Shown: positions 36,878 to 39,870 of the stretch, piece by piece | Position numbering within the stretch: the stretch's first letter is position 1 | Layout: each line of letters begins with the position of its first letter | From: Escherichia coli | Lineage (GTDB): Bacteria > Pseudomonadota > Gammaproteobacteria > Enterobacterales > Enterobacteriaceae | Assembly (NCBI RefSeq): GCF_003018115.1 | Contig: NZ_CP027457.1 | Reading direction: 5' to 3' (one strand) | DNA length: 64,000 nt | The notes under the pieces: model-generated | Databases searched by the model: none | Seen by the model: the letters and a program-made list of their open reading frames with translations, nothing else | What the model was told of the DNA's origin: nothing | Translations under genes and position numbers: made by a program

Positions 36878-37136
36878 GTTAAATCCCTCACAATTCAGTA
36901 AGTTGACAGTTGCCTGTCAGACTGAGCATTTGTTAAAAAAATTTCGCATGGTGAATCCCCCTGTGCGGAGGGGCGACTGGTGAACGGTATGATCTCTTTG
37001 ATGATCGTAAGCGAGAATACGCGGGTTTGGTGTCACCGGGCTGAACTCACCGGGAGGCACCCGGCACCATGCTCATGGTGATACAGAAATGCGGCTTCAG
37101 CCCCTCTCCGGAGGGGCTTTCTTATGGACAAAAAAA
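36878..37136 (+). repeat. copy 1 of a ~250-bp tandem module (conserved core plus intrinsic terminator)
   Basis: Shares gttaaat(c/t)cctcaca(a/g)ttc..., catggtgaatccccctgtgcggaggggc..., ctcaccgggaggcacccggcaccatg..., cagcccctctccggaggggcttt with copies at 38848-39870. Confidence 0.7.
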
Positions 37137-37267
37137 GCCCGCGCTGGGAGACGCGGGCGGCAAGGAATAAACAATAAAACGTGAAGTAATACTTCAACTG
37201 GCGAATAATACCCGACAGTAATCACTCTGCGCAATAGCGTGGCCTTTTTCGAATTGCGGGCTGTAGT

Positions 37268-37443
37268 CTCCCTTCTGCCGGGTGTCCTGGTTGCAGATTT
37301 CTTCATGGGGTAGGGTTCGGCAGTTAAAGCAGCGATGGCGCTGGGGCGTCGTGCAACTGGCGTTGAGCTGGATACCGGGCGTTTTGAACAGACTGCGCAG
37401 GAAATCAGGGATGTATTTAGCGGGAGCGGTTTGCAGAAGTAAT
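37268..37443 (+). pseudogene. 3' fragment of a second DNA methyltransferase allele
   Basis: About 170 bp with high identity to 35750-35902 (methylase 3' end), with an in-frame TAG replacing a Ser codon; no N-terminal portion present. Confidence 0.6.
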
Positions 37444-37505
37444 CTCCCAAAATGCCATTTTTGGAATATACTGGTATTAAGTCTTTTTGCTCAGGTTAAT
37501 TCAAA

Positions 37506-38231
37506 ATGGATGTTGCCTGCTCTGTGGTCCTGATTCGCTATCCGATAGATATTTTTCTTGAAAAAGAAAAAGTTTCACTCGATGCCGGAAGTGTTATGCT
37601 TGTTGCCAGAAATATAAGAGGGCTTTTCTGTGCTTATGCCGACAGAGTGAAAATGGCAGATATAAGTAACAGCGTCGTCAATCAGTATCTGGAAAGGGTG
37701 TGTGAACTGACGGAGTATACACCGACAAAAATGCCTCTTTATTTGATGTCTGATATTTACAATACGGAACTGGCGGAGGCTTTAATAACCCAGCATAGTG
37801 AATCCAGTGATACTTTGAAGGATTTCTCTGTTATAACCGCATTTTCATGTATCTCCTTATTTGCAACAGACAGGCGTCTGCCATTATTTTTGTCCGGTGC
37901 TGTAAATAATATCAGCTGTAAAGTAAGGGCTATAATTCAGACTGACATATCGGCAGGCTGGATGCTAGGTGTGATTGCATTACAATTGCATATGAGCGAA
38001 AGCTTGTTGAAGCGAAAACTTAAGGATGAAGGTTATAGCTTTAGTCGGTTGTTGCTGGAGGAGCGAATGCGTGTTGCTGTTAATCTTGTATGTTTCCAGC
38101 GAGAGTCTGGACAAGTGATAGCGGAAAAATGTGGTTACTCAAGTAAGTCCTATTTAATTTCTGTATTTCACCAGTATTATGGTGCACCACCTGAGAGCTA
38201 TGCATATTTGCAGAAAGCAGACGTTATCTGA
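37506..38231 (+). CDS. AraC-family transcriptional regulator (prophage cargo)
   Basis: 241 aa; C-terminal double HTH (...LLKRKLKDEGYSFSRLLLEERMRVAVNLV...AEKCGYSSKSYLISVFHQYYG); low-GC segment. Confidence 0.8.
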   Translation: MDVACSVVLIRYPIDIFLEKEKVSLDAGSVMLVARNIRGLFCAYADRVKMADISNSVVNQYLERVCELTEYTPTKMPLYLMSDIYNTELAEALITQHSESSDTLKDFSVITAFSCISLFATDRRLPLFLSGAVNNISCKVRAIIQTDISAGWMLGVIALQLHMSESLLKRKLKDEGYSFSRLLLEERMRVAVNLVCFQRESGQVIAEKCGYSSKSYLISVFHQYYGAPPESYAYLQKADVI

Positions 38232-38320
38232 TGTTTTTTCATCAGGCATATATTGATTGACTGTATTAGATATAGTCTGAATGTGTTCAGCATAAAAAGT
38301 TATAATCATTTGGTGTTTGC

Positions 38321-38599
38321 GTGAATATTGATGAGAAAATCAGATGTAGCCAACTGTTACAGCGTATTGAAGCCGTCAATGTGGAACGAACAAAGGTCTT
38401 CAGTCGTCTGACAGTTTTATTTTGTACCCCTGATCGACGTTCAGGTCAGGAGATGGTTCTTCTGGATGTAGATGCACTTCGGAACGTCTGTGAGGAGTTC
38501 ACCGCGGCTAATTCGGAGTTACTGAGTCTTGTTCAGGAGTACAACAGAATTGCAGGTAGTAACGGTTTTGATGAAATCAAAATTATATCCCGTGGATAA
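38321..38599 (+). CDS. hypothetical protein downstream of the AraC-family gene
   Basis: 92-aa ORF, GTG start, AT-rich; no family recognised. Confidence 0.35.
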   Translation: MNIDEKIRCSQLLQRIEAVNVERTKVFSRLTVLFCTPDRRSGQEMVLLDVDALRNVCEEFTAANSELLSLVQEYNRIAGSNGFDEIKIISRG

Positions 38600-38847
38600 A
38601 ACATATCCTGTATATTTATGTTGTTACATACAGGCGCTTTTAGTATCTGCCGCACGGCAGTTGTACTTCAGAATAAGATGCTTTTGTGACTGGTGGTGTT
38701 GTATCTGGGGTTAGCCAGGAGGCAGGTTCAGAGAGTCCGGTGGTAATTATGTGTATGCAGTGGTTGTTGCTGTACCGTGGGCAAGTTCTGGAACTGGCTT
38801 CGTCCATTGTAGATGATTGTTAGCTGGATATCAGTTACCTCATGGAA

Positions 38848-39870
38848 ATGTTAAATGACTCACAATTCGGTTGATGGACTATTGTCTGAACGATGGAAGT
38901 CTTGTAAAAACGAGCCAGCATAGTGAATCCCCCTGTGCGGAGGGGCGTCTGACATGGTCTCCATAGCGATGGTCACAATACGCAGATTCAGTAGTCAGGC
39001 TGAATCTACCGGGAGGCACCCGGCACTATGCTGCTTATGGTGTATACATAGCGATCGGCCCCTCTCCGGAGGGGCTTTTTTTGTGCGGGAAAAGGCTGTG
39101 TTGTTAAGTGTTAAATTCCTCACAGTTCAGATGGTTGATGCTTGCCTGTCTGAGGGGGAGTTGTTAAAAAAGTTCTGCATGGTGAATCCCCCTGTGCGGA
39201 GGGGCGACTGGTGTGATTTGCATCTTTTCTGTTGTAGGCAATGCAAACGCGGGTTCAGGGACACCAGACTGGACTCACCGGGAGGCACCCGGCACCATGT
39301 TCATGATGATACAGATACGCAGTGTCAGCCCCTCTCCTGAGGGGCTTTTTTATGCAGGAAAAACGCTGTGTTGTGAAATGTTAAATTCCTCACAGTTCAG
39401 ATGGTTGATGCTTGCCTGTCTTACGGGGAGTTGTTAAAAAAGTTCTGCATGGTGAATCCCCCTGAGCGGAGGGGCATATCAGCGCAGGTGTTTCTACTCT
39501 ATCCTTTCTGTGCGGGTTCAGGTGCTGATACTGAACTCACCGGGAGGCACCCGGCATCATGCATATGGTTAACAGACACGTAGCGAAGCCCCTCTCCGGA
39601 GGGGCTTTTTTATGCAGGGAAAAGGCTGTGTTGTGAAATGTTAAATTCCTCACAATTCATGAGGTTGATGATTGTCTGATTGATGAGGAGTTTGTTAAAA
39701 AAAACGGGCATGGTGAATCCCCCTGTGCGGAGGGGTGATATCGTATCATTTCCTGTGTGGCCGACTGATATCACGGACATTTGTTCACCGGGAGGCACCC
39801 GGCACCATGCAGTATACAGAGATTAGGCATACATCCAGGCTCCTCATCGCAGGAGCCTTTTTACATGTAA
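38848..39870 (+). repeat. copies 2-5 of the ~250-bp tandem module
   Basis: Four direct copies, each ending in a GC hairpin (cccctctccggagggg or ggctcctcatcgcaggagcc) followed by a T-run. Confidence 0.7.

Follow-up and report, generated by a model that had tools for sequence, protein, structure and literature searches.

Five repeat modules in an Escherichia coli prophage belong to the STnc100 small RNA family, four of them arranged head to tail

We analysed a 64,000-nucleotide stretch of an Escherichia coli genome (contig NZ_CP027457.1; hereafter the window, or 64-kb window) that carries five plus-strand repeat modules of about 260 bp each in a lambdoid prophage. All five match the Rfam small RNA (sRNA) family STnc100 (RF02076) over model positions 1-206 of 206, with 119-172 bits. 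Membership was taken to require a covariance-model match over the full model that reaches the curated gathering score of 47 bits, and by this measure the modules are members of the STnc100 family. That family was already catalogued between 2008 and 2012, so they are not a new one. Taking the explanation as a whole, we consider it very probable that the modules are independently transcribed STnc100-family sRNA genes occupying the moron slot of a lambdoid E. coli prophage. The first-pass annotation of this DNA had proposed, as the first of two options, a family of structured small RNA genes, and the full-length STnc100 matches, the covarying core helices and the Hfq binding published for relatives all bear that proposal out.

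The modules were delimited by reading the sequence, by repeat finders and by a five-way alignment of 290 columns, which has a mean column identity of 75% and shows long invariant blocks around a poorly alignable centre. They had been described as a five-copy tandem array. There are indeed five repeats, but they do not form a single array: an isolated module (36877-37125) is followed, 1.97 kb on, by four head-to-tail modules (38849-39864). Start-to-start distances are 1972, 260, 270 and 260 bp, which gives a tandem period of 260-270 bp. Each module consists of a conserved upstream block, a core closed by an inverted repeat, a variable insert and its own intrinsic terminator. The insert, first described as a spacer of about 60 bp, is variable as claimed and measures 52-76 nt. 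Exactly five matches to the upstream motif TGTTAAATNNCTCACARTTC stand in the window (36877, 38849, 39109, 39379 and 39639); 0.10 would be expected by chance, and none of 100 shuffles gave five. The 3' core motif ACCGGGAGGCACCCGGCA has five exact plus-strand matches in the window and, besides these, one compensated variant on the minus strand (22961-22978). The inverted repeat is present in all five copies, but it is not invariant as had been thought, for module 2 carries compensatory changes in it (GCATAGTG...CACTATGC). A GC hairpin followed by a T run closes every module, and here the terminator scan agreed with the earlier description of a plus-strand terminator per copy; the region holds 14 terminator-like sites against 2.5 expected. 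The modules and their parts are as follows.

36877-37125, plus strand: STnc100 module 1, with upstream block 36877-36896, candidate -10 element TTAAAT at 36879-84 and leader to 36945
Module 1 core: helix P1 36946-53 / 37065-72, hairpin P2 36958-73, hairpin P4 37050-64
Module 1 variable region: 36974-37049, including hairpin B at 37023-48
Module 1 3' end: linker, then terminator 37099-37118 and U tract
38849-39083, plus strand: STnc100 module 2, core 38918-39031, terminator 39057-39076
39109-39353, plus strand: STnc100 module 3, core 39177-39300, terminator 39327-39346
39379-39613, plus strand: STnc100 module 4, core 39447-39562, terminator about 39586-39607
39639-39864, plus strand: STnc100 module 5, core 39708-39810, terminator 39837-39858

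Alongside the Rfam model we used a covariance model of our own, R1, which was built without the pseudoknot described below. Module 1 scored 172.4 bits with Rfam (36917-37129) and 96 bits with R1 (36946-37072). For module 2 the two scores were 118.8 and 92.6 bits; its P1 contains the compensatory pair GCAUAGUG/CACUAUGC, and its minimum free energy (MFE) fold recovers P1, P2, hairpin B and P4 (z = -3.1). Module 3 scored 140.8 and 97 bits and has a predicted pseudoknot CUGGUGU:ACACCAG (-11.7 kcal/mol); module 4 scored 141.7 and 98.2 bits, with an MFE z of -4.0 and a predicted pseudoknot UAUCAGC:GCUGAUA (-13.7 kcal/mol). Module 5 (141.3 and 83.6 bits) has the shortest variable region of the five, and its first strand has a nested partner in place of a pseudoknotted one. 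Its 3' linker is of the EcOnc27 type and starts within the 3' strand of P1 (about 39806), with free linker from 39811 to about 39836. Compared by hand with the published EcOnc27 Northern probe, the module 5 tail agreed with the probe's reverse complement at 31 of 35 positions; a search of the window with that probe, allowing up to three mismatches, found no match.

Close relatives of the modules have been detected experimentally as Hfq-bound RNAs (PMC4104026, PMC8550237, PMC5331693). STnc100 overlaps EcOnc27 of E. coli O157 Sakai (prophage Sp5), which was bound to Hfq in crosslinking and analysis of cDNA (CRAC) and is the same RNA as sRNA103 of strain EDL933; in enterohaemorrhagic E. coli (EHEC) EcOnc27/sRNA103 lies 75 nt after stx2B. 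Both EcOnc27 and EcOnc13 have been seen by Hfq-CRAC and on Northern blots. In EDL933, RNA-seq reads were reported for 11 of 11 STnc100 loci, one of them confirmed by Northern blot. Eight Sakai prophages were described as carrying convergent pairs of Hfq-bound sRNAs 3' of PR', where morons are inserted (Tree et al., 2014). PasD1 and PasD2 of enteropathogenic E. coli (EPEC), which are 172-173 nt long and detected by Northern blot, are hubs in RIL-seq, in which interacting RNAs are ligated and sequenced. STnc100 is a structural homologue of PasD1/2. The two are regarded as sharing an ancestor, PasA and PasD are stated to have multiple copies that lie apart and not in tandem, and the function of the Pas sRNAs is stated as not elucidated (Zhu, Shabalina and Storz, bioRxiv 2026). 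Work on EcOnc27, the moron-slot pairs and PasD has thus already established what kind of element this is, where it is located and that it associates with Hfq.

The first-pass annotation had suggested searching the core against other prophages and examining covariance and RNA folding across the copies. An exact core pattern, run against IMG/VR and one genome per GTDB species, gathered 142 loci with 49 distinct variable regions, the sources including E. albertii, Citrobacter, Klebsiella, Enterobacter, Superficieibacter, Pantoea, Phytobacter, Mangrovibacter, Trabulsiella and Franconibacter. Covariation was assessed on a MAFFT alignment of 32 sequences from at least ten enterobacterial genera, with a structure that we specified. 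Under the specified core structure 84.5% of cells were paired, compared with 42-48% when the 3' partners were slid, and the covariation score was 0.357 against 0.163 for shuffled alignments, none of 500 shuffles scoring as high. Changes on both sides of a pair were found at 5 of 8 pairs in P1, 9 of 9 in hairpin B and 2 of 5 in P4, so the core helices do covary and compensatory changes are present. P2 was invariant in this alignment, which is partly an artefact, since the loci were collected by an exact P2 pattern. In P1 the outer four pairs are swapped between AU, GC, UA and GU, and the G-U wobbles occur in the plus-strand sense, pointing to RNA. P2 and P4 are invariant in sequence across at least ten genera, as are AAUC in the junction J1/2 and the GC before hairpin B. 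MFE folds of modules 2-5 gave the same multi-branch core and a separate terminator, with z between -2 and -4.

One element of the core is absent from the Rfam model. In most alleles about 7 nt after P2 are complementary to the loop of hairpin B, and many different sequences make this pairing (CUGGUG:CACCGG, AUCAGC:GCUGAU, ACUGGAUA:UAUCCAGU, AAGCCACAG:UUGUGGCUU). On the plain MAFFT alignment only 52% of its cells were paired because the register slips by one between alleles, and we therefore relied on an alignment-free swap test. Across 28 allele types, cognate strands paired with -8.6 kcal/mol and non-cognate strands with -5.6 kcal/mol (permutation p < 1e-4); the same test on the hairpin-B arms gave -9.2 against -4.6. 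The pseudoknot can form in four of the five window copies, module 5 having a nested equivalent. Altogether, the comparisons support a predicted core fold in which P1 is the closing helix, the hairpins P2 and P4 are invariant, and the loop of the 3' hairpin B is pseudoknotted to the post-P2 strand in four of five copies.

Two further readings of the core were tried. A small open reading frame (ORF) starting from an AUG in the 3' strand of P1, behind a GGAGG in P4, was rejected: that AUG is absent in relatives whose P1 reads CACCACAC or CACCGCAA, and the reading frames run through the terminators. A riboswitch-like alternative pairing is not conserved across alleles: the possible pairings, of the linker CAUGGUG with the 3' strand of P1 and of the P2 3' arm with the terminator 5' arm (module 1), are confined to some E. 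coli alleles and are missing from module 5 and from alleles with other terminators. The copy of the core in front of dicB, described below, may nonetheless be a riboswitch or attenuator.

Each module offers two promoter candidates: TTAAAT, which lies some 55 nt before P1, and TTGCCT-17-TTAAAA, which adjoins P1. The TTGATG/TTGACA segment first taken for a promoter element is probably not the -35 used. In the E. coli modules P1 is preceded, at a distance of about 57 nt, by an invariant block, TGTTAAAT-N2-CTCACAATTC. A good TTGAC-N17-TAnAAT stands directly before P1 in distant relatives, among them those in Klebsiella, Trabulsiella and Superficieibacter; the E. coli version is weaker. Published transcripts of relatives help to place the ends. 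PasD2 (NC_011601, 741157-741328) has as its first nucleotide the G of GCAUGGUG, with which P1 also begins, and has its seed and RIL-seq chimeras in the last 50 nt or so; Hfq-CRAC-bound EcOnc27 is about 235/247 nt long according to the supplement of Tree et al. The EcOnc13 probe of Tree et al. maps to -47 to -13 relative to P1, and the leader is therefore transcribed in EHEC. For the five modules the upstream start appears likeliest, near 36891, 38863, 39123, 39393 and 39653, and would give RNAs of about 212-235 nt, in keeping with the 235/247-nt bands of EcOnc27 and with where the EcOnc13 probe lies; we infer the P1-proximal start as a family-wide alternative that would give about 155-180 nt. 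The earlier estimate was a discrete RNA of about 150 nt; going by the published Northern sizes and the one probe position, its size is probably about 155-235 nt.

Variants downstream of stx2B that are associated with haemolytic uraemic syndrome (+90 T>C and +103 delT; PMC12711010) appear to fall in this part of the element. By our numbering they would lie in TTTGTTAAAAAAATTTC, an A-rich segment just upstream of P1 (locus L002, 4866-4882; about 36929-36945 in the window), which is P1-proximal -10/extended-TG region or leader and not structured core. The variant allele is present in the Shiga toxin 2 (Stx2) phage L043.

The prophage context was taken from NZ_CP027462.1, in which a 3.3-kb segment is 100% identical to the window. 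In that RefSeq record the Q antiterminator gene is followed by two ORFs, a DNA methyltransferase gene, two tRNA genes, an ORF resembling the TolA C terminus, module 1, a methyltransferase pseudogene remnant, an AraC-type regulator gene, modules 2-5, a SASA/NanS-p esterase gene, holin and lysozyme. No RefSeq feature covers the modules in the records inspected. In Stx2a phages the same slot holds stx2AB, and a near-identical module 1 starts 75 nt after stx2B (L002, 4854-5068). The window thus shows the layout of a convergent moron-slot pair, namely a slot 3' of Q/PR' and cargo and 5' of the esterase and lysis genes, with a minus-strand partner. The copies also bracket the AraC-family regulator gene, as had been noted from the letters. 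The features of the slot are these.

37130-37405, minus strand: convergent sRNA partner of module 1, with terminator 37158-37137, GCCCGCGTCTCCCAGCGCGGGC then T7; its upstream extent is inferred from a published size of about 271 nt
37278-37429, plus strand: DNA methyltransferase 3'-end remnant, an 82% direct repeat of 35747-35898 (methyltransferase pseudogene in RefSeq)
37506-38599, plus strand: cargo between module 1 and the array, comprising the AraC-family regulator and a 92-aa ORF
37506-38231, plus strand: AraC-family regulator; best NCBIfam matches YdeO and GadX, both below curated cut-offs
38321-38599, plus strand: 92-aa ORF with a match to phrog_2873, function unknown
39869-39990, minus strand: second, diverged convergent partner after module 5, with terminator 39898-39876

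The published EcOnc08/21/42 Northern probe matches 37204-37238 with one mismatch, and the partner of module 1 is therefore of that type of about 271 nt. Direct repeats with 74-94% identity tie 37130-37234 to 39870-39983. We had also considered AsxR and AgvB (RF02703 and RF02702), which are recognised by a conserved 3' region of about 42 nt (..AGTATCTCATGC..TTGCCCGAACCCACTCGGGCTTTT). This identity was rejected for the minus-strand partner: neither family gave an Rfam match even at E values up to 10, and the published AsxR sequence is absent from the window and unlike its minus-strand RNAs. The 152-nt repeat of the methyltransferase 3' end shows that two cargo slots have been fused, and marks their junction.

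Cargo-free lambdoid phages of other genera have Q, a PR'-like promoter with a terminator, an STnc100-like gene with a convergent minus-strand terminator, and then holin. From this order we conclude that the element is a fixture just upstream of the lysis cassette and not the PR' leader. For one such phage (L099) the module as PR'-tR' late leader was ruled out, a separate promoter and terminator lying after Q and upstream of the module. In the window a GC hairpin and T run at 33443-33470 (plus strand), about 90 nt after the Q gene, are in the position of tR', the terminator of the PR' short leader.

Some other observations concern the surroundings of the modules. A 16-nt exact direct repeat, CCAGCATAGTGAATCC, is found at 37790-37805 within the AraC-like coding region and at 38915-38930 in module 2, where it covers the 5' strand of P1 and the junction; we estimate about 0.004 chance matches in the 5.5-kb region, and it may be a recombination scar or a regulatory link. 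At 35942-36017 (plus strand) ARAGORN calls a tRNA-Met (CAT) and RefSeq a tRNA-Ile for the identical gene, which is presumably of the lysidine-modified ileX/ileZ type, as in Stx phages. Finally, the early/immunity region of the prophage (28495-28679 and 29388-29562, plus strand) has Rfam matches at gathering score to isrK (51 bits), C4 antisense RNA (69 bits) and sok (117 bits).

We then considered how common the arrangement is. Among 5,426 complete E. coli genomes, the 3.3-kb segment is covered to at least 80% in 78 and the array's terminator-to-promoter junction, to the same extent, in 88. Tandem junctions are rare, and the stacking of four copies is the unusual part; our literature searches found no published tandem arrays of the STnc100 family. 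Among the 142 loci, 118 have one copy, 13 have two, four have three and two, both window-like, have five; tandem triples occur in Superficieibacter too. The same variable arm is seen with different upstream regions, 3' tails and terminators, and the reverse is also true, so that the conserved core segments act as crossover points. These sequence comparisons show that prophages exchange promoter, variable arm and 3' tail independently of one another. In L042, for example, a single-copy module has the arm and tail of module 4. The contig of a related prophage (L117, 8785-12011 against window 35003-40056) is collinear with the window through module 1, lacks 37476-38754 with the AraC-like gene and orf92, and has modules 1, 2 and 5 only; between the two, copy number and cargo are polymorphic at this locus. 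Some exact-core matches adjoin housekeeping-looking ORFs, ldhA-like or porin-like (L131 of Enterobacter hormaechei and L130 of Mangrovibacter), and the family may exist outside prophages too.

A sixth, divergent copy of the core lies elsewhere in the window, between a DicF-like hairpin and dicB.

22738-22926, minus strand: dicB, whose start codon the sixth core precedes by 28 nt
22955-23088, minus strand: divergent STnc100-like core without a terminator of its own; R1 43.2 bits, E = 6.6e-9
About 23103-23143, minus strand: DicF-like short hairpin

Its Rfam STnc100 score of 33 bits is below the gathering score of 47, and it is not a member by that criterion. P4 is compensated (CCUGG/CCAGG) and the pseudoknot is kept (CAGUUAA:UUAACUG). 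No promoter was evident by eye immediately upstream. The Qin prophage of a K-12-type genome has the same element in its dicF-dicB interval (L143, 2521-2646; 44.8 bits), and the dicB-linked element is covered to at least 80% in 4,127 of the 5,426 complete E. coli genomes. The section on DicF expression and processing of a preprint on dicBF regulation makes no mention of an STnc100-like core.

On the explanation that we favour, the RNAs would be made in lysogens from their own sigma-70 promoters and would end at the terminator, where the hairpin and U tail would bind Hfq. Pairing with mRNAs would fall to the single-stranded 3' linker, much as PasD uses UGUGAG as its seed. These steps are modelled on homologues. 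The compact 5' core would bury the 5' end and could serve as a scaffold that stabilises the RNA or binds a partner. As no two of the five copies have the same variable arm and linker, the array might supply several specificities at once. It could have arisen when prophages underwent unequal homologous recombination at the conserved segments of core, promoter and terminator. During lytic growth, Q-modified polymerase would read through the whole array.

Several points weigh against this explanation. The consensus promoter scan called no candidate and both promoters are weak by consensus, and the transcript ends of these copies are inferred from PasD, EcOnc27 and EcOnc13. No significant target complementarity was found inside the window: within the prophage the longest stretches are 12-13 nt, roughly at chance level by an estimate rather than a shuffle test. 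Published target data for the family are thin, amounting to the PasD RIL-seq lists and to effects of sRNA103 on fimZ and espA without a mechanism. The sixth copy stands without a terminator in the operon leader before dicB, so the core is not intrinsically a part of an sRNA. Finally, the invariant P2 and P4 and the pseudoknotted junction exceed the needs of a base-pairing Hfq sRNA, which suggests a further function.

On a different reading, which we think unlikely, the core would itself be the functional RNA domain, binding a protein or RNase, acting as a tRNA-like decoy or serving as a riboswitch-like leader, with a specific partner and with the arms peripheral. The invariance in sequence of P2, P4, the J1/2 AAUC and the GC before hairpin B across at least ten genera agrees with it, as do the pseudoknotted topology with P4 abutting P1 and the occurrence of a terminator-less core as dicB leader in 4,127 of 5,426 E. 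coli genomes. However, the modules match no riboswitch, ribozyme or tRNA-like Rfam family and ARAGORN finds no tRNA there, only some E. coli alleles have the alternative pairings, apart from Q and holin no gene co-occurs that might be a partner, and part of the P2 invariance comes from collecting sequences by an exact P2 pattern. In its bolder form, in which the STnc100 core would be an unrecognised pseudoknotted RNA domain with a specific partner (protein, RNase or ribosome), used both in moron sRNAs and in a dicB cis leader, this is a speculation that we rate as doubtful. If true, the core would carry exchangeable arms and 3' seeds, tandem arrays would be a recombining library of regulators, and the core between dicF and dicB would be a cis-acting leader controlling the cell-division inhibitor DicB in most E. 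coli, including K-12.

It is rather improbable that the modules act mainly in cis, as stacked terminators or insulators with the RNAs as by-products, keeping transcription from cargo promoters (of the AraC-like gene, or of stx in relatives) out of the lysis genes in lysogens. Each unit does have a strong intrinsic terminator, minus-strand terminators abut modules 1 and 5, five serial terminators would be tighter than one, and cargo-free phages of other genera place the element between tR' and holin, where protection from leakage matters. Termination does not, however, need a covarying core of about 115 nt with invariant hairpins and a pseudoknot; each unit adds a promoter of its own aimed at the lysis genes, one copy is enough for most prophages, and the published relatives are abundant, Hfq-bound RNAs with specific chimeric partners. 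Least credible of all, we think, is that the units are DNA elements, whether attC-like recombination sites delimiting cargo cassettes, a REP/ERIC-type (repetitive extragenic palindromic or enterobacterial repetitive intergenic consensus) repeat or a CRISPR-like one. They flank cargo genes, their segments are exchanged between prophages at conserved blocks, and the core is closed by an inverted repeat around a variable centre; ordinary homologous recombination, though, accounts for the exchange, and plus-strand-sense G-U is far commoner than the reciprocal A-C, pointing to RNA. All copies have one orientation with the late operon, and each has a promoter-like block and a terminator. A match to a REP/ERIC family, which the first-pass annotation had named as a finding that would overturn its proposal, did not turn up: the modules match an sRNA family instead. 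REP/ERIC-type repeats are imperfect palindromes of about 35-130 bp (REP about 35 bp), scattered between genes of the core genome and having neither promoter nor terminator; the units here are about 260 bp long with irregular inserts, occur in prophage late or early regions only, keep a fixed orientation and have their own terminators. Its dismissal of CRISPR, in which short near-identical repeats alternate with unique spacers of one length, was sound as well, as each unit has about 200 bp of conserved blocks, the 52-76-nt 'spacers' contain covarying helices, and the same arm alleles are met again in other prophages; the RefSeq record shows neither cas genes nearby nor an integron-type integrase in the annotated neighbourhood.

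The main value of reading the modules as sRNA genes is the correct annotation of a catalogued prophage sRNA family. What we add to it is incremental: the tandem arrangement, the pseudoknot, the exchange of modular parts and the relative linked to dicB. One prophage is able to carry five differently armed STnc100 genes, and copy number differs among related prophages, so sRNA dosage and repertoire would vary between lineages of Shiga toxin-producing E. coli. The core is more structured than published RNAalifold models suggest, since the pseudoknot is supported, and its strong conservation across Enterobacteriaceae argues that it does more than carry a seed. Even K-12 has a relative of the core before dicB, where it is open to standard genetic tools. 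These points could bear on phage-encoded riboregulation in pathogenic E. coli.

Compared with STnc100 as known from EcOnc27 and sRNA103, the modules agree in their full-length model matches, their intrinsic terminator and their slot, which follows the cargo and precedes nanS-p and the lysis genes; module 1 hardly differs from the copy found 75 nt after stx2B, and the module 5 tail is the EcOnc27 tail. They differ in being five per prophage, four of them head to tail, whereas the literature describes dispersed singles, one per prophage; in addition, the module 3 arm allele was found only in the architecture of the window, and the cargo is an AraC-like regulator instead of stx. As in the convergent pairs of Tree et al. 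(2014) (EcOnc27/AsxR, the AgvB pair and EcOnc08/21/42), an STnc100-type RNA on the plus strand and an RNA on the minus strand converge between cargo and a conserved downstream ORF, their terminators back to back; the partner here, however, is of the EcOnc08/21/42 type and not the anti-sRNA AsxR or AgvB. PasD1 and PasD2 of EPEC E2348/69 (EcOnc13 in Sakai) likewise have P1, P2, a variable arm and a reduced P4, in a slot adjoining the esterase gene; PasD2 scores 36.5 bits with R1, and the PasD 5' end is the first base of P1. PasD nevertheless falls below the Rfam gathering score, and it has a shorter P2 loop, a truncated P4, another promoter type (TTGACT-17-TTAAAA) and another 3' linker and seed (UGUGAG). 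The dicF-dicB region of Qin-type prophages has a divergent core that R1 scores at 43-45 bits, with compensated P4 and pseudoknot, but without a terminator of its own and inside the early dicBF operon. Finally, the modules resemble multi-copy sibling sRNAs such as OmrA/B, PrrF1/2 and Qrr1-5 in being paralogous Hfq sRNA genes that each have a promoter and terminator and are partly common in sequence. Such siblings usually share a seed and are fixed in the core genome, whereas the modules described here share a structured scaffold, differ in arms and linkers, and are exchanged among prophages.

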